DNA from: an archaeon
GTDB taxonomy: Archaea; Iainarchaeota; Iainarchaeia; Iainarchaeales; JAAZKV01
Direction of reading: 5' to 3'
Assembly: GCA_036170245.1 (NCBI GenBank)
Contig: JAVHOV010000023.1
Coordinates: 1 to 11,093 of the forward strand
Length of the DNA stretch: 11,093 bases
A program made the position numbers and the translations under genes. Shown piece after piece: positions 1,599 through 8,078 of the stretch (its first letter is position 1; each line of letters starts with the position of its first letter). The notes beneath the pieces are model-generated. The model was not told the origin of the DNA. It made no database searches and was given only the letters and a program-made list of their open reading frames with translations.

Positions 1599-1841
1599 GT
1601 GCTTGTTGGAATGAAAACAATAACTATTACAGATAAGGGGCAAATTGCTTTGCCTAAAGAGTTAAGACAAGGAAAGTTCTCTAATGGAAAGAAAATTGTT
1701 GTCTTAGCTTTTGAGGACAAAATAGAATTAAGACCAATTGAGCACATAAATGAAAAACTACTAAACACTCTTCTTAGTGAAAAGTCCTTAATGAGGGATT
1801 GGAATACTAAAGAAGAGGATAAAGCATGGAAAAAATTGTGA
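1599..1841 (+). CDS. AbrB/MazE/SpoVT-family antitoxin
   Basis: Swapped-hairpin signature ITDKGQIALPKELR. C-terminal SEKSLMRDWNTKEEDKAW resembles antitoxin tails paired with PemK-type toxins. Overlaps the downstream toxin gene. Alternative start is ATG 1611. Confidence 0.88.
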   Translation: MLVGMKTITITDKGQIALPKELRQGKFSNGKKIVVLAFEDKIELRPIEHINEKLLNTLLSEKSLMRDWNTKEEDKAWKKL

Positions 1842-2155
1842 AAGGAGATGTAGTAGTAATAAGAATTCCTTTTACTGATTTGACCGCTGATAAAAAAAGA
1901 CCTGCTTTAGTTATTGCTAACCTTGGAGGAGAAGATCTAATCTTGTGCCAAATCACAAGCAAAGAACCCTTAAGCAATTTTGTTAAACTTACTGAAAAAG
2001 ATTTTTCAACAACAAATCTTGATGTAACCAGTTTTGTAAGAATTGATAAAATTTTTACTTTAGATTCAAAAATGACTGAATACAAAATAGGAAGAATAAG
2101 TCAAAACAAAATAACTGAAGTAGAAACAAAACTAATCAAAATAATAACTACTTGA
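1826..2155 (+). CDS. mazF: PemK/MazF-family endoribonuclease toxin
   Basis: KGDVVVIRIPFTDLTADKKRPALVI, ILCQITS and SFVRIDKIFTLD match PemK/MazF motifs; 109 aa; directly after the antitoxin. Confidence 0.92.
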   Translation: MEKIVKGDVVVIRIPFTDLTADKKRPALVIANLGGEDLILCQITSKEPLSNFVKLTEKDFSTTNLDVTSFVRIDKIFTLDSKMTEYKIGRISQNKITEVETKLIKIITT

Positions 2156-2495
2156 ACCTAATCTCAATTGAATCAATTTTTGGTTCAATAAATACTTTTC
2201 TTCCTTTTTTGTTCTTCTCAATCATTCCTTGACTTTCAAGAATAGAAATATCTCTGCTGATTGCTTCTTGTTTTCTTCCTGTGGATTCAACTAAATCAGA
2301 TACGCAAGCAGGAGAAGAGTAAGTCATTATGTGTTTCATTAAGTCAAGTCTTTCTTCTGAAAGTATTTGGTGCGCCAAAATTGCATTTTTTAGATAAACT
2401 GTTGTAGTGCCATTTAATTCTTTTGAAGGTTTGCTCCAAGCTTCGCGCAAATCCTTATCAGAATCTGCACCAATTTTAATAATTAATTTTTTCAT
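2148..2495 (-). CDS. Winged-HTH protein (ArsR-like / HVO_A0114-type), probable antitoxin
   Basis: ILSEERLDLMKHI...VSDLVESTGRKQEAISRDISILESQGMIE wHTH, with N-terminal beta strand MKKLIIKIG and C-terminal IEIRF. ATG 2495 chosen as start; the ORF track extends to 2519. Confidence 0.8.
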   Translation of the reverse strand: MKKLIIKIGADSDKDLREAWSKPSKELNGTTTVYLKNAILAHQILSEERLDLMKHIMTYSSPACVSDLVESTGRKQEAISRDISILESQGMIEKNKKGRKVFIEPKIDSIEIRFK

Positions 2496-2533
2496 ACAAA
2501 CCATAAACATAACTCCCAATGTTATATATAAAT

Positions 2534-2809
2534 TTATTCATCATTGAACTTGATTAAATATTTCTGCCAATTTGCTTCCAAATTATTTTTCAGTTCAAAT
2601 ACAGTATCAATTGTTGGAGGAAAATCCAAATATTCTTTTCTTGAATGTTTTTTAGAGTAATAATGCACGTGAAGAGTTTCTTTTTGAGAATAATCATATT
2701 TTATAACTTCTTCAAAAACTTCATTCACTTTTGTTAAATAAATTATTACAAAAGCATTCACAATAAACTCAGCAGAATACTCAAACTTAATATAAACTTC
2801 ATTTTCCAT
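2534..2809 (-). CDS. Small DUF6516/DUF7718-like protein, putative toxin partner of the wHTH gene
   Basis: VIKYDYSQKETLHVHYY resembles the R/K-YD...HxH motif, and there is a C-terminal NWQKY. It lies upstream of an HVO_A0114-like HTH gene. ATG 2809 follows a G-rich SD-like GATGGGGG. Family assigned by recall only. Confidence 0.55.
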   Translation of the reverse strand: MENEVYIKFEYSAEFIVNAFVIIYLTKVNEVFEEVIKYDYSQKETLHVHYYSKKHSRKEYLDFPPTIDTVFELKNNLEANWQKYLIKFNDE

Positions 2810-2910
2810 ACCCCCATCAAGGAAAATAAAAAATTCCCTAAAATTTTCATTCATTTATGAAATTTAAAAAAAGAGATATATAAAGAAAACTACTTTTTCG
2901 TCAATTGTAC

Positions 2911-4404
2911 TTATTCTTTTTTAGGAGTTTCTTCTTCTTTTCTTTCTGGCTTCATTTGTGGGAAGAAGATTACATCTCTTATTGTTGAAGAATTTGTTAG
3001 AACCATTATTAATCTATCAATTCCAAGTCCCATTCCGCCTGCAGGAGGCATTCCGTATCCTATTGCATCCAAGAAGTCTTCATCCATCGGAACTGCTTCG
3101 CCTTTTGCTCTACCCTGGTCTTTTTGGTCTTCGAAGAATCTTCTTTGCAAAATTGGATCATTTAGTTCAGAGTAACCATTGCAAATTTCGTGACCGTTAA
3201 TGTAACCTTCTGTTCTTTCAATTAGTAAATTCAAATCTTCTCTTGAGGGTTTACATAAAGGAGTTGTTTCTTTTGGATATTCAGTTACCCAAGTTGGCTG
3301 GATTAATTCGGCTTCGCAAAAGTGTTCAAATAATTCTACAACAACAAGACCCCATTTTTTGTCTTCTTCATTAATTTCAACTTTTTCTCTTGCAGCAATT
3401 TCAAGTAATTCTTCAAGAGTCATTGTCTTAACTGCCCTGCCAACTTTTTCACTCAAAGCATCAAGCATTTTGATTCTCTTCCAAGGAGCTTTGAGATCAA
3501 TTTCTTTTCCTTCGTAAGTAACTTTAGTTGTTCCGTTAACTTTTATTGCAACATACTCAATCATTTGTTCTGTTAGAGAAATAATTCCGTTCAAGTCAGT
3601 GTACGCTTGGTAGAATTCCGACATTGTAAATTCAGGGTTGTGAGTTTTATCAACATCTTCATTTCTAAAATTCTTACAAACAGTGTAAACTTTATCAAAT
3701 CCACCAACTAACAATCGTTTCAAATATAATTCGGGAGAAATACTCAAGAAGAAAGTTGATTTCCAAGCATTTGAAACAGTAGTGTAGGGTCTAGCACTTG
3801 CTCCACCATAAGTTGGTTGAAGAACAGGAATTTCTACATCCAAAAATCCTTTATTATTCAAAAATTCTTTCCAAGCTTGAATAATTTTTGTTCGCTTAAT
3901 AAAAACTTCTTTTACTTCAGGATTCATAATTAAATCCAAGTATCTTTGTCTTTGTCTGATTTCAATATCCTGTAAACCGTGGAATTTTTCAGGAAGAGGC
4001 AAAATACTTTTGCACAAAACTTCTAAAGTGTTAACCATTATTGAAAGTTCTCCTCTTTGAGTTCGGTAAACTTTTCCATGAGTTCCAACAATATCCCCTA
4101 AATCAATTGCTTCAAGAAGTTTGAATACTTCGCCAGGAGTATCTCCTTTTTTTAAGAAAAATTGTATTGTCCCTTTAGTATCAGCAACTTTTAAAAAAGC
4201 AATTGCTCCAAAAGAACGTTTAGCCATTACTCTTCCTGCAACATTAAATTCAGGACCAAATTCTTCATTCTTTAAAGAAGTAAATTTTTCTAATAATTCT
4301 GTAGAATAAGCGTTAACATCAAAACTATATGGATAAGGGTTAATTCCTGAATCAACTAATTTCTGCAAATTATCCTTCTTTGCTTTTACTAAATCGTTAT
4401 CCAT
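2911..4404 (-). CDS. lysS: Lysine--tRNA ligase, class II
   Basis: OB-fold N-terminus (GINPYPY, VAGRVMAKRSFG, LPEKFHGLQD, RQRYLDLI), GGASARP, motif 2 NFRNEDVDKTHNPEFT, motif 3 YGMPPAGGMGLGIDRL. ATG 4404 chosen as start; the track starts at TTG 4419. Confidence 0.97.
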   Translation of the reverse strand: MDNDLVKAKKDNLQKLVDSGINPYPYSFDVNAYSTELLEKFTSLKNEEFGPEFNVAGRVMAKRSFGAIAFLKVADTKGTIQFFLKKGDTPGEVFKLLEAIDLGDIVGTHGKVYRTQRGELSIMVNTLEVLCKSILPLPEKFHGLQDIEIRQRQRYLDLIMNPEVKEVFIKRTKIIQAWKEFLNNKGFLDVEIPVLQPTYGGASARPYTTVSNAWKSTFFLSISPELYLKRLLVGGFDKVYTVCKNFRNEDVDKTHNPEFTMSEFYQAYTDLNGIISLTEQMIEYVAIKVNGTTKVTYEGKEIDLKAPWKRIKMLDALSEKVGRAVKTMTLEELLEIAAREKVEINEEDKKWGLVVVELFEHFCEAELIQPTWVTEYPKETTPLCKPSREDLNLLIERTEGYINGHEICNGYSELNDPILQRRFFEDQKDQGRAKGEAVPMDEDFLDAIGYGMPPAGGMGLGIDRLIMVLTNSSTIRDVIFFPQMKPERKEEETPKKE

Positions 4405-4500
4405 AAAATAAACTTCCAAGGAATGAATTAAAAGGCTTACCTTAAAAGCAAAAAAATCATCAAGAATATATTTTTAACCAAATAGAAAGCATACTTAGGT

Positions 4501-5265
4501 ATGCAACATCAAGTAAAAGGAAGAGCAGAAATGCTTGCAAAATTCAATGCAAAGAGAAAAGCAACACGAAAACCAGAACACTATGATGATGCAATTCTTC
4601 TTGGCTCAAAAGGCGGACTTACCAGGAAAAAAATCCAGCAGGTTATCGGAAGAATGAAGAAAAAAAGAGAGAATTATTTAGGACAAGAAATTCCAACCGT
4701 CACATCTTCAGACAATATGCTATTTACTGGGTCAAAAGCAACTGCAACAGATGTTGCAACAAGACTCTCACTAAAATATCTAATGAAACCACTCAAAGCA
4801 ATGAAACTCAGTCAGGAATCTCTTTTGGCATTTGAACGATTGCTTCTTGCAAGAGGCCAAATAATAAAAGGAACAAATATTAGTTTAAGACCACCACAAG
4901 AGTTTTTGATGCTTGACTTGATAAACTCTTTTGGAGAAGACGGATACAGAAAAGCCCAAAAAGTTTCAGAGAAACTCACTCAGAGAGGACACAATATACA
5001 AAGACTGGCCATAAAATCAAAACTTAATGAGTCAGATGTTTTCTATAATGTTCCCCCAAGGGCAGGGATAGCGCAGTCATACTTAGGCATTAGTAAAGAA
5101 AGTTTTATAGCAAATTTTCCGTCAACCTTAAGAGAAAGAGAACTTGAACTTGAGCAACTTAAAAAAGAAAATATTTCAAACAAAGAAATTTTCATAAAAA
5201 TGCTTGAAGATCAAGTAAAAAAAGCAAGGAAAAGTTATATCCTGTTCAGGCAAAACAACATGTAA
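4501..5265 (+). CDS. Hypothetical basic protein
   Basis: 254-aa ORF divergent from lysS, with TATA-like TTTTTAAC at 4471 (30 nt upstream). K/R-rich; no domain recognised. Confidence 0.75.
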   Translation: MQHQVKGRAEMLAKFNAKRKATRKPEHYDDAILLGSKGGLTRKKIQQVIGRMKKKRENYLGQEIPTVTSSDNMLFTGSKATATDVATRLSLKYLMKPLKAMKLSQESLLAFERLLLARGQIIKGTNISLRPPQEFLMLDLINSFGEDGYRKAQKVSEKLTQRGHNIQRLAIKSKLNESDVFYNVPPRAGIAQSYLGISKESFIANFPSTLRERELELEQLKKENISNKEIFIKMLEDQVKKARKSYILFRQNNM

Positions 5266-5306
5266 GCTTAAACTGTATTAAATATTACACTTATTCTTTA
5301 ATAGTA

Positions 5307-5313
5307 TTTAATA
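5307..5313 (+). promoter_or_regulatory. Putative TATA box for the trp leader transcript
   Basis: TTTAATA starts 30 nt before ATG 5337, the same 30-33 nt spacing seen for genes at 4501, 8861 and 10144. Confidence 0.45.
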
Positions 5314-5336
5314 ATCTACATGAATGAATGTATGTT

Positions 5337-5384
5337 ATGAAAGTTAATTTGGTTGAAAAAGTTGTCTGGAGTCCTTTCATCTAA
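5337..5384 (+). CDS. Putative Trp leader peptide 1, MKVNLVEKVVWSPFI
   Basis: Hand-translated ATG 5337 to TAA 5382-5384, single TGG at 5367-5369. Positioned like a leaderless or short-leader ORF relative to the TATA-like box. An in-frame ATG at 5328 is an alternative start. Confidence 0.45.
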   Translation: MKVNLVEKVVWSPFI

Positions 5385-5481
5385 TTATCGACTCACCAGG
5401 TCTGGAATCCAGGCAATCAACCAAAGAAAAATTAATCACACTTACTTCTCTGACTCAAGGATTAAAACTTTTCACTGGTGA
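5353..5481 (+). CDS. Possible 42-aa upstream ORF ending in His-Trp-stop
   Basis: TTG 5353...CAC TGG TGA 5481 gives MKKLSGVLSSNYRLTRSGIQAINQRKINHTYFSDSRIKTFHW. No clear SD, so translation is uncertain. Confidence 0.25.
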   Translation: MKKLSGVLSSNYRLTRSGIQAINQRKINHTYFSDSRIKTFHW

Positions 5482-5509
5482 ACACTATATTTTACTCTAA
5501 AAATATTTG

Positions 5510-5582
5510 GGGAGAATAGTGTAGTGATAACACGAATAAGTTTTTTACTTATTAGTCCAAGGTTTGATTCCTTGTTCTCTTA
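5510..5582 (+). ncRNA. tRNA-like cloverleaf element (non-canonical tRNA, pseudo-tRNA or tRNA mimic)
   Basis: Acceptor GGGAGAA/TTCTCTT; T8A9; D arm GTGT-AGTGATA-ACAC; G26; anticodon arm AATAAG-TTTTTTA-CTTATT; variable loop AGTC; T arm CAAGG-TTTGATT-CCTTG; discriminator A; no encoded CCA. Confidence 0.85.
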
Positions 5583-5600
5583 AATTTTGGAGATGAAAAA

Positions 5601-5639
5601 ATGGAAAATAAAAAAAGTGAGTTAGCCTGGCTACAATGA
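5601..5639 (+). CDS. Putative Trp leader peptide 2, MENKKSELAWLQ
   Basis: SD-like GGAGATGA at 5589-5596, ATG 5601, TGG at 5628-5630, TGA 5637-5639. Ends 19 nt before the trpB2 ATG. Confidence 0.5.
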   Translation: MENKKSELAWLQ

Positions 5640-5658
5640 TTTAGGCAAAAAAGTAGTA

Positions 5659-6897
5659 ATGTTAGAAAAGAATGAAATACCAACGCACTATTACAATGTG
5701 CTTGCGGATCTACCTTTTGAATTTCCGGCACCACAAGGAGATTTGGCAATTTTAGGAAAAATATTTCCTAGCGAAATATTACAACAAGAAATGAGTTCTG
5801 AAAGATATATCAAGATCCCTCATGAAGTAAGAGAAATTTATGCAAAAATTGGAAGAGCAACTCCACTACAAAGAGCAGATAATTTAGAAAAAGCTTTAGG
5901 GACAAATTGCAAAATATTTTTCAAAAGAGAAGACACAACTTTGCAAAGAAGTCACAAAATCAATACTGCACTCGCACAAGCTTATTATATCAAAAAGGCA
6001 GGATTCAAAAATGTTACAACAGAAACAGGAGCAGGCCAGTGGGGTAGTGCATTATCTCTTGCATGCAAATTATTTGATTTGAATTGCACAGTGTACCAAG
6101 TGAAGTGCAGTTATGACCAAAAACCTGCAAGAAGAACAATAATGAAATTATATGGGGCAAAAGTAATTGCTAGTCCCAGCGACACTACAAAAATTGGGAG
6201 GGAAATGCAAAAAAAGTTTCCAAACACTCCAGGGAGTTTAGGGATGGCTATTGCTGAAGCTGTTGAAATTGCAAAAGAAAATGAAGATACTGTATACAGT
6301 TTAGGAAGTGTGCTCAATCACGTTTTGATGCACCAAACTGTAATCGGACAAGAAACAAAAAAGCAACTGGAGAAGATTGGTGAAAGCGCTGATATAGTAA
6401 TTGGGTGCGTTGGAGGAGGAAGTAACTTTGGAGGAATCGCTCTGCCCTTTATTCCTGACAAATTGAATGGAAAAGAAATAGAATTAATTGGAGTGGAACC
6501 AAAAGAAGTTCCAAGCATGACAAAGGGAGAATACAAGTATGATTATGGAGATACGGGAAAACAAACTCCACTTTTGAAAATGCATACTCTGGGTTGCGAA
6601 TTTGTTCCAGAAGCAATTTACGCAGGCGGATTAAGATATCATGGAGTTGCTCCAATAATTTCAGCACTAATTGATCACAACTTAGTGAAAGCAGAGAGCT
6701 ACTCTCAAGAAGAGTGCTTTTTGGCAGCAAAATTATTTGCTGAAACAGAAGGAATAATTGCAGCACCCGAATCAAGTCACGCCCTAAAGAGTGCAATTGA
6801 ACATGCCAAGAAAAATGACGGCAAAACAATTGTATTCAATTTAAGCGGAAACGGAATACTGGACTTGGCTGCATACGAAAAAGTGCTTGGACTGTAA
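5659..6897 (+). CDS. trpB2: Tryptophan synthase beta chain, type 2 (TrpB2 / TrpB-like PLP enzyme)
   Basis: IPTHYYNVLADLP N-terminus, PLP-lysine motif SHKINTA, TTETGAGQWG, GSLGMAIAEA, YSLGSVLNHV, CVGGGSN, YAGGLRYHG and APESSHA are all characteristic of TrpB2. Confidence 0.95.
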   Translation: MLEKNEIPTHYYNVLADLPFEFPAPQGDLAILGKIFPSEILQQEMSSERYIKIPHEVREIYAKIGRATPLQRADNLEKALGTNCKIFFKREDTTLQRSHKINTALAQAYYIKKAGFKNVTTETGAGQWGSALSLACKLFDLNCTVYQVKCSYDQKPARRTIMKLYGAKVIASPSDTTKIGREMQKKFPNTPGSLGMAIAEAVEIAKENEDTVYSLGSVLNHVLMHQTVIGQETKKQLEKIGESADIVIGCVGGGSNFGGIALPFIPDKLNGKEIELIGVEPKEVPSMTKGEYKYDYGDTGKQTPLLKMHTLGCEFVPEAIYAGGLRYHGVAPIISALIDHNLVKAESYSQEECFLAAKLFAETEGIIAAPESSHALKSAIEHAKKNDGKTIVFNLSGNGILDLAAYEKVLGL

Positions 6898-6906: not shown

Positions 6907-6971
6907 GGCACATGAATCAAGAATAATTAAAAACACTAAAGTGAATGATATGTATGAGAGAAAGTGAAAAA

Positions 6972-8078
6972 ATGACTGAAAAAATAATCATTGACCCGTG
7001 GGGAAAAGAACTCGTTGAAGATTACACTAGATTGATTAAGGAATTCGGAATGAAAGAGTTTGATGCAAGCATGTTTCCTAATCCAAATTTACAAATGAGA
7101 AGAGGAATAAATTTTGGAGGAACTGATCTTGAACAAATTTCTACTGCAATCCAAAACAAAAAACCATTTTATGCACTAAGTGGAATAATGCCTTCAAGCG
7201 AAAAAATACATTTAGGAACTGAAACTGTAATTCAAAATATAAAATACTTTCAGGATCATGGAGCAAGAACTTACGTTTTAATTGCTGATGTAGAATCCCA
7301 AGCAACAAGAGGAGTTCCAATTGAAGAAGGAAAAAAAAGAGCAATGGAATTTCACATCCCTGCATACTTAGCACTTGGACTTGATATTGAAAAAACAAAT
7401 TTTTATTTACAAAGCGAAAATAAAAAAGTATCAAACCTTGCAGTAATTGCCTCACAAAAAGTAACTGAAAATGAATTTAGGGCAATATATGGATCACTTC
7501 ATCCTTCGAAAGTAATGAGTGCATTTACTCAAATGGGAGATATACTCTACCCACAGCTTGAAGAAAAAATGCCGGGAGTAATTCCTGTAGGAATTGACCA
7601 AGCACCGCACATTAGAATGGTAAGGGACGTTGCACGAAGACTAAAAGCTGATTACTCCTTCTTCCTACCTAGCGCATTATACAACAAATACACTAGCGCA
7701 CTTGATGGTTCATTTAAGATGAGCAAAAGCGGGGAAGAGAATGCAAAAATAGAAATCCCTGAAAAAGATCTCAAGCTCTTAGAGAAAAAAATAAACAAAG
7801 CCCTAACAGGCGGAAGACCAACTAGAGAAGAACAAAGAGCAAAAGGCGGAGAAATATCAAAATGCGTTGTTTACGAATACTGCAAAAATCACTTCATCAA
7901 AGACGATAAAGAATTAAAGGAAATGTTTGAAGGATGCGTCGGAGGAAAGAATTTGTGTGGGGAATGCAAAGCAAAATACGGAGTTCCTTTTGCAACTAAG
8001 TTCTATGAAGATTTCAACATTAATTTCTCAAAAGCAAAAAAACAAATACAAAACGGAAAAGTAAAGTTTGTTGAATGA
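6972..8078 (+). CDS. trpS: Tryptophan--tRNA ligase, archaeal type
   Basis: IDPWG...DYTRLIKEFG N-terminus, HIGH-like HLGT, DILYPQL, IPVGIDQAPH, KMSKS, ALTGGR, C-terminal CGECK. ATG 6972 chosen as start; the track starts at 6945. Confidence 0.95.
   Translation: MTEKIIIDPWGKELVEDYTRLIKEFGMKEFDASMFPNPNLQMRRGINFGGTDLEQISTAIQNKKPFYALSGIMPSSEKIHLGTETVIQNIKYFQDHGARTYVLIADVESQATRGVPIEEGKKRAMEFHIPAYLALGLDIEKTNFYLQSENKKVSNLAVIASQKVTENEFRAIYGSLHPSKVMSAFTQMGDILYPQLEEKMPGVIPVGIDQAPHIRMVRDVARRLKADYSFFLPSALYNKYTSALDGSFKMSKSGEENAKIEIPEKDLKLLEKKINKALTGGRPTREEQRAKGGEISKCVVYEYCKNHFIKDDKELKEMFEGCVGGKNLCGECKAKYGVPFATKFYEDFNINFSKAKKQIQNGKVKFVE

Follow-up and report, generated by a model that had tools for sequence, protein, structure and literature searches.

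An anticodon-less descendant of tRNA-Trp in the trpB2-trpS leader of Iainarchaeota as a candidate two-state fold of a tryptophan sensor

The element at positions 5510 to 5582 of the window (the whole stretch of 11,093 nucleotides that was analyzed; leader features are on the plus strand) is, as judged by sequence comparison, the descendant of a second tRNA-Trp gene in the trpB2-trpS leader of Iainarchaeota, a group of small, uncultured DPANN archaea. It has lost a working anticodon, and on balance we consider it likely to be the two-state cis fold of a tryptophan sensor. The tRNA-Trp origin, purifying selection on the arms, an open +1 frame, the fixed distance of a second Trp codon, and the complementarity of the spacer can be read from the compared leaders. 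Overall, the element looks like a real, selected, tRNA-derived regulatory RNA in an apparently undescribed kind of leader, for which the mechanism proposed below is plausible and specific. The initial annotation, made from the letters of the window, had linked the element to the trp genes, which holds, and had missed that it derives from tRNA-Trp and belongs to a larger leader, which carries an anti-tRNA helix besides three Trp-codon sites.

Structure, identity, and conservation of the element

The initial annotation had described four paired stems, the expected elbow bases, A19, U56, a 6-bp anticodon stem, and U37, and this description was borne out: the cloverleaf is real. ARAGORN called tRNA-Lys(ttt) over the 73 bases at 5510 to 5582, the Rfam tRNA model matched with 49.4 bits (E value of 2.5e-8), and the arm parse recovered 7/7 acceptor, 4/4 D, 6/6 anticodon, and 5/5 T pairs, with acceptor pairs 1 and 2 both being G-U. 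The elbow contacts G18:U55, A19:U56, U54:A58, and G15:C48 are present, and the anticodon loop consists of six U and one A, with U at base 37. Folded alone, the element forms the cloverleaf at -16.7 kcal/mol with a z score of only -1.87, 9 of 200 shuffles being equally stable; the cloverleaf is nevertheless more than chance, because relatives hold a tRNA-Trp(CCA) gene at the orthologous position. An assembly slip is unlikely, since four DNA runs from a single study, which may be the source of the window, carry identical letters from 5200 to 5800.

Compared with the tRNA-Trp(CCA) genes of the same family, the element shares the D arm, the T arm, A73, and the genomic position of the leader copy, whereas its anticodon loop has been replaced, its anticodon stem is one pair longer, G1-C72 is lost, and A19:U56 is found at the elbow. 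It is therefore a tRNA-Trp by descent, on the basis of orthologous position and arm sequences, and not by identity elements, as the CCA anticodon and G1-C72 are absent. A functional tRNA-Lys(UUU) was rejected on structural grounds as well (U37, the 6-pair stem, and a 6-base loop in the relative L062). The genome (G000; 0.87 Mb, 86% complete) carries separate, ordinary genes for tRNA-Lys(UUU) and tRNA-Trp(CCA), so that the element is not the genome's tRNA-Lys, a point that the initial annotation had raised. Annotation miscalls such elements as tRNA-Lys or pseudogenes.

A role in trans of the released RNA, either as a lysine-accepting tRNA(UUU) or as an uncharged decoy, appears improbable. UUU and A73 are the bacterial class II LysRS determinants listed in PMC9976931, the LysRS of this genome is of class II (bacterial type; window 2911 to 4419), and the loop has 7 bases in three of the four relatives. 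Against this, the loop of L062 has 6 bases, other anticodon-less loops consist of 4 to 6 unrelated bases, base 37 is U, the acceptor stem is the fastest-varying part, and a normal tRNA-Lys(UUU) exists.

In Escherichia coli, the thrS leader carries a synthetase-binding operator. The initial annotation had suggested an operator of this type for TrpRS or LysRS, a reading that is very improbable here, even though the element lies upstream of trpS and TrpRS could bind those leader copies (10 of 17) in which CCA is retained. Since C34, C35, and G1-C72 are gone, a TrpRS operator is unlikely: among the archaeal Trp identity elements (C34, C35, G1-C72, and A73, according to the accessible part of PMC9976931), all but A73 are lost, whereas the arms are conserved, and the element thus does not keep the cognate identity elements of a thrS-type operator. 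With regard to LysRS, the loop has 6 bases in one of the four relatives and is unrelated in the other anticodon-less versions, and lysS, encoded on the opposite strand at a distance of more than 1 kb, is a neighbor whatever the leader holds (including tRNA-Trp(CCA) or no tRNA). Elsewhere, window 1599 to 2854 contains two toxin-antitoxin-like pairs, one PemK/MazF-like behind a small ORF and one HVO_A0114-like with DUF7718.

The window's subtype comprises four species (G000, G012, L062, and L074), with A19:U56 common to all. Their D, anticodon, and T arms (51 bases) show no substitutions, with one loop U lost in L062, despite 35% divergence at 4-fold sites of trpB2 among the three of the four species that were comparable; in 51 arm bases, 23 to 24 changes would be expected after matching of base composition (log10 P of about -15). 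The subtype is thus under selection, which agrees with the earlier suggestion of selection on the L-shape over decay. The A19:U56 pair by itself is weak evidence, because G-to-A and C-to-T changes are common in AT-rich DNA and a 5'-half duplicate next to the housekeeping tRNA-Trp gene also has A19. The acceptor stem varies fastest, yet its changes mostly keep pairing (7, 7, 6, and 6 of 7 pairs in the four species). A decaying pseudogene of a redundant tRNA-Trp, which would fit the loss in many leaders, the partly decayed copies of G010 and G053, the AT-directed changes, and the weak folding z score, is accordingly the least probable reading of all and is excluded for the window's subtype by its unchanged arms.

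On the trpB2 tree, the anticodon-less forms require at least three changes, and a single clade was rejected (7 rows versus 8; AU p of 1.5e-121), although the history of the leader may differ from that of the trpB2 gene. Positions 19:56 can pair in all eight parsed anticodon-less forms (G:C in three, G:U in one, and A:U in four), and the loops are 4 to 7 bases long. What these comparisons mark as conserved is the shape, not the decoding end.

The leader and its Trp-codon sites

Of the 37 distinct leaders compared, genomes supplied 27 and metagenome contigs the other 10 (of 37 metagenome pattern matches, 21 were chance matches, 6 duplicated rows already in the set, and 10 were used); these leaders are related, and counts overstate their independence. 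In the window, an imperfect palindrome of the TGTA-N8-TACA type (5274 to 5289), found at the same place in 35 leaders, is by its position a candidate transcription-factor site. It precedes a TATA-like box (5307 to 5315); an AUG follows 28 to 33 bases after this box in 35 leaders, and the transcript is predicted to be leaderless, starting at or just 5' of the uORF1 AUG. uORF1 (5337 to 5384, 15 codons) has a single Trp codon (5367 to 5369) directly after a candidate +1 slip codon (5364 to 5366). Exactly one Trp and a length of 7 to 16 codons were found in 35/35 leaders parsed (the script needed an in-frame AUG and a TATA-like box, and two missed leaders were added by eye), and thus, as in ribosome-mediated attenuators, a conserved leader ORF carries the regulatory codon.

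ORF1b (5365 to 5481, 38 codons) occupies the +1 frame of uORF1, lacks a separate start codon where the two join, and ends with Trp-stop, the Trp codon being at 5476 to 5478. Counted from the codon preceding the first UGG, the +1 frame is open for at least 29 codons in 37/37 leaders (median of 46), and the +2 frame reaches 25 codons in 8/37; the chance of an open +1 frame in shuffles has a median of 0.10 per leader. In 28/37 leaders, a Trp codon is found among the last 8 codons of this +1 frame, and leaders that lack a second Trp codon keep the frame open as far as the next gene's SD or start codon (shown for 8 leaders). Helix P1 pairs 5364 to 5371, which contain the first Trp codon, with 5407 to 5414; in the alignment, 91.7% of 350 cells are paired and 3 of 10 pairs have changed on both sides. 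Six leaders of families f27, f2, and f20 are organized alike, and their first site resembles that of prfB more clearly. A conserved CUCACC motif (window 5390 to 5397) has the letters of the 16S rRNA anti-SD and is found in one to three copies per leader, at positions that vary. In most of the genus, the +1 frame reads it as Arg-Leu-Thr; a role as anti-SD was rejected, as little pairing with the SD is predicted.

A Shine-Dalgarno (SD) sequence (5589 to 5596) lies 6 bases 3' of the element, the 3' end of the genome's 16S rRNA having been found. It is followed by uORF2 (5601 to 5639, 12 codons), with an internal SD-like sequence at 5616 to 5621, a candidate slip codon at 5625 to 5627, and a Trp codon at 5628 to 5630. 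The trpB2 frame (5626 to 6897) is +1 to uORF2, has an upstream stop just before the slip codon, and reaches its first own Met at 5659; its product matches TrpB-like NF009057 (E value of 8.5e-192). trpS, encoding tryptophanyl-tRNA synthetase, follows (6945 to 8078), with the closest named homologues in Ca. Iainarchaeum/Diapherotrites, which places the host among the DPANN archaea as a member of Iainarchaeota. Searches with six proteins from the operon of one relative found no other trp biosynthesis genes in the 86%-complete genome. The same third site, that is, an SD-linked short ORF with a slip-prone codon and Trp and the next gene in the +1 frame, was seen at 15 of 23 hand-picked loci, while six others are plain in-frame starts. 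The gene in the +1 frame is trpB2, trpB1, or an Asp/Glu racemase, and Trp is replaced by Arg once. Annotation truncates trpB2 at such leaders.

Several single loci deserve mention. At the trpB1 start of L022 (G021), CGG (Arg) after CCC replaces UGG. Asp/Glu racemase-family genes under a Trp leader and frameshift occur in G016, G046, G047, and G051 (L023:97-774 and L151:1709-2389); in L151:1612-1720 (G047), the +1 frame of the leader runs into the slip-Trp site of the racemase without a second start codon, so that this racemase would need two successive +1 shifts. In L083, an Aenigmarchaeota record, the SD-like sequence, slip codon, UGG, and +1 layout are found 5' of trpB2 outside Iainarchaeota. 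A frameshift match in G053 lay inside a gene and was discarded.

The known +1 site of prfB (RF2) slips at CUU_U with an SD 3 bases upstream (PMC5009743). Shared with it are a slip codon followed by a slow A-site codon, an SD-like sequence 3 bases upstream, a short zero-frame ORF, and the existence of in-frame orthologues, all of which mark the third site of the window; in other families, both frameshift sites are of this type. Unlike in prfB, the slow codon is UGG, a sense codon, the proposed signal is charged tRNA-Trp, and the sites stand in series; moreover, the first site in the window's family lacks a clear SD-like element, and its re-pairing is poor. The archaeal frameshift examples in the accessible part of PMC5009743 include no regulated hungry-codon case.

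The competing helix and the proposed switch

An anti-tRNA strand (5483 to 5498) pairs with 5511 to 5526 of the element and excludes the cloverleaf; in the window, this duplex is worth -14.2 kcal/mol (z score of -3.9 against shuffles). The second Trp codon lies 23 to 36 bases 5' of the tRNA in 17/17 leaders, and the spacer pairs with tRNA bases 1 to 18 at -10 to -19 kcal/mol. This duplex beats shuffles (p<0.05) in 11/17 leaders versus 0/14 housekeeping tRNA-Trp genes, and the spacer's own partner beats permuted partners (p of 0.0013 for 11 rows, each standing for a lineage). Spacer scores are best in the window's subtype, all four members of which reach z scores of -3.9 to -4.9, and covariation is seen in L069, where G-C replaces a U-A pair of its close relatives G002 and G021. 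In 10/16 leaders, predicted acceptor pairing with the real upstream sequence is below that with at least 18/20 shuffles. In the second family, f27, which has the same layout, the helix was found in 0/4 leaders with a 30-base spacer window, and 3/4 passed only with a 45-base window picked afterwards.

For the window, the predicted anti-tRNA fold (-28.4 kcal/mol) and cloverleaf fold (-25.9 kcal/mol) are 2.5 apart, and masking 9 to 18 bases after the second UGG, as a ribosome footprint would, gave an acceptor pairing of 0.64 to 0.69, with the cloverleaf favored. Blocking of the spacer raised predicted acceptor pairing in only 7/17 leaders; in another 7/17, including the window's three closest relatives, it stayed below 0.1, and 3/17 were folded in both states. 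The folding programs take no account of tertiary contacts or modifications, a limit that works in both directions. Regarding mutually exclusive helices, P1 and the anti-tRNA helix are supported, and a ribosome-dependent switch is predicted in only 7/17 leaders.

Several outputs were considered. A classical 1:2/2:3 attenuator stalling at the first UGG only was rejected, as no consistent downstream change appeared in 36 folded leaders, in several of which the helix finder mis-assigned region 2. Hiding of the SD by the 3' half of the tRNA is, as a general output, unsupported for the window's subtype: this pairing beats shuffles in 7/17 leaders, none of that subtype, and shows no partner specificity (p of 0.46). 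A simulated RNase P cut of the window led the element to refold onto the SD (acceptor pairing of 0.01). A simulated RNase Z cut, made with no control, raised SD exposure by at least 0.2 in 13/17 leaders (from 0.37 to 0.91 in the window), a rise that is not counted as evidence because removal of any upstream RNA would be expected to give it.

Termination at the loop U run, or at the T arm with the U-rich 3' acceptor strand, is distinctly improbable. Archaeal RNA polymerase can stop at oligo-T without a hairpin, as described in the accessible part of PMC13675443, the U run is kept in 4 species, and 5558 to 5574 was flagged as terminator-like (1 found, 0.1 expected). Neither feature, however, occurs in other subtypes or in the CCA copies, and the leader alignment held no hairpin with U tail common to the leaders, only the one window-specific match. 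The folding-gated U6 terminator of the initial annotation fails in that the run is confined to the window's subtype; in addition, stem folding could hardly gate the run, because the run would act inside the polymerase before the 3' side of the stem is made.

According to the mechanism that we propose, when Trp is plentiful the ribosome would read the first UGG in frame, stop five codons on, and leave. The naked spacer would then pair with the 5' strand of the tRNA, no cloverleaf would form, and the downstream genes would be off, through FttA termination on ribosome-free U-rich RNA (PMC13675443), a hidden SD, or both. When charged tRNA-Trp is scarce, a +1 slip at the first UGG would lead to translation of ORF1b, and the ribosome waiting at the second UGG would cover the spacer and let the cloverleaf fold. 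RNase P and RNase Z would excise the cloverleaf to leave a trpB2-trpS mRNA starting 6 bases before the SD, and the ribosome would have to slip +1 once more, again at a Trp codon, to enter trpB2. Relatives with an intact CCA would thereby gain extra tRNA-Trp as well; where only the shape matters, the anticodon would be dropped.

Cleavage by RNase P and RNase Z was chosen by analogy with t-elements and is the likely output, although it is the least certain part of the scheme. Among the possibilities raised in the initial annotation, such a processing signal is our best guess; the genome encodes RNase P RNA, RNase Z, and FttA. In Haloferax and in the mitochondria of plants, t-elements are known substrates of RNase P and RNase Z (PMC4326828 and PMC1920247). 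Like these (Haloferax 5S rRNA; Arabidopsis mitochondrial cox1, ccmC, and nad6), the element is a tRNA-like fold in a longer transcript, in which the acceptor stem, T arm, and elbow can form and, in context, a competing fold exists; t-elements serve as RNase P/Z substrates that make the end of a neighboring RNA, whereas for the window cleavage is a proposal. The fold of the window further differs in facing a conserved competing helix that is connected with a Trp codon, in its location in a leader regulated by an amino acid, and in coexisting across relatives with intact tRNA-Trp.

It is also conceivable, though unlikely, that the element is an unregulated t-element, always cut by RNase P/Z or always shielding the mRNA 5' end, in which case the frameshifts and ribosome coverage would sense Trp and the spacer complementarity would be incidental or only tuning. 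Known t-elements work in this manner (PMC4326828 and PMC1920247), 20/37 leaders lack a tRNA, and three leaders fold the acceptor in both states; nevertheless, the spacer complementarity is specific to the leaders, covaries, and is strongest in the window's subtype, and the second Trp codon lies at a fixed distance. The regulated switch, in its complete form, would be a serial AND gate in one RNA: a hungry-codon +1 shift, a stall at the second Trp codon, a tRNA fold cut by RNase P/Z, release of the trp mRNA, and a third shift opening the enzyme frame, with the ancestral form also a homeostat for charged tRNA-Trp and the window a tRNA fully domesticated into an anticodon-less switch. We put forward this whole chain tentatively, being slightly inclined to doubt it in full.

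Origin, spread, and relation to known systems

A tRNA fold is present in 17/37 leaders. The other 20/37 have no tRNA, and the tRNA is therefore dispensable, an add-on module to the frameshift sensor. Among the 17 tRNA-bearing leaders, the CCA anticodon is kept in 10 and lost in 7, across several lineages; one of the 10 CCA copies has an intron-like insert and another a broken T stem. Extra anticodon-less forms precede trpB2 in G053, which has no recognizable leader, and in G112, which belongs to another family; the latter (L161) is a 51-base mini-tRNA with an acceptor stem and T arm and with merged D and anticodon arms. Partly decayed-looking copies are found in G010 (T stem 2/5), L048 (T stem 3/5), and G053, and those of G010 and G053 may be decaying. 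No tRNA was found in the 600 bases upstream of trpS in 14 genomes of other families.

Seven genomes (G000, G002, G010, G011, G013, G018, and G019) have the leader copy plus a separate housekeeping tRNA-Trp, and in G021, G023, and three f27 genomes the leader copy was the only match to an intron-less pattern, these genomes being incomplete. The ancestral leader likely raised tRNA-Trp, TrpRS, and TrpB in response to a fall in charged tRNA-Trp; given a housekeeping copy, the fold alone would likely have been needed, and loops unable to miscode would have replaced the anticodon.

Further observations concern tRNA genes outside the leaders. On contig C35 of G000, a partial 5' tRNA-Trp duplicate with A19 lies ∼135 bases upstream of the housekeeping tRNA-Trp (1704 to 1776), and a degenerate 3' duplicate lies ∼80 bases downstream. 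Similar 3' duplicates flank a short palindromic insert after tRNA-Trp in G002, G010, G013, and the leader copy of G011, which resembles a small element integrating at tRNA-Trp 3' ends. The housekeeping tRNA-Trp genes in L140, L138, L134, and G000 C35 have C at 55 and several have C15:A48, which is unusual for tRNAs. Contig C15 of G000 carries at 12083 to 12158 a tRNA-Ile with a UAU anticodon, which is uncommon in archaea.

Bacterial ribosome-mediated attenuators such as trpL combine a Trp-codon leader peptide with alternative helices before trp genes. The leader described here resembles them in all three respects, its alternative helices being predicted, and differs in having one Trp codon, a +1 frame that continues to a second Trp codon, a switched tRNA fold, and an archaeal host. 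The presence of two UGG motifs ahead of trpS and trp genes also recalls the leaders of T-box riboswitches; unlike there, both UGG are in-frame codons and the tRNA is in cis, and a T-box was rejected, as there was no match to the Rfam T-box (Stem I or antiterminator). TrpY and Tar are DNA-binding proteins that control archaeal trp operons, and these operons likewise have Trp-linked control and a palindromic site near the promoter, according to the accessible part of PMC6737238, whereas the palindrome of the window is spaced differently. In the literature searched, which covered a minority of subscription papers, neither this leader nor a ribosome-stalling leader whose switched fold is a tRNA was found to be described. 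Thus, the parts have precedents (t-elements, trpL attenuators, the thrS operator, prfB, and TrpY/Tar), and the combination is undescribed in that literature.

The leader points to ribosome-based amino acid sensing in archaea, in which the known Trp control, according to the same part of PMC6737238, is by DNA-binding proteins. It also suggests that frameshifting at hungry codons is used in nature as a gate for regulation and that a tRNA gene can serve as the structure that is switched, the output likely being provided by the enzymes of tRNA maturation. From intact tRNA-Trp, by way of anticodon-less forms that arose several times independently, to loss of the tRNA, the leaders form a living record of a tRNA becoming a cis-regulatory RNA.
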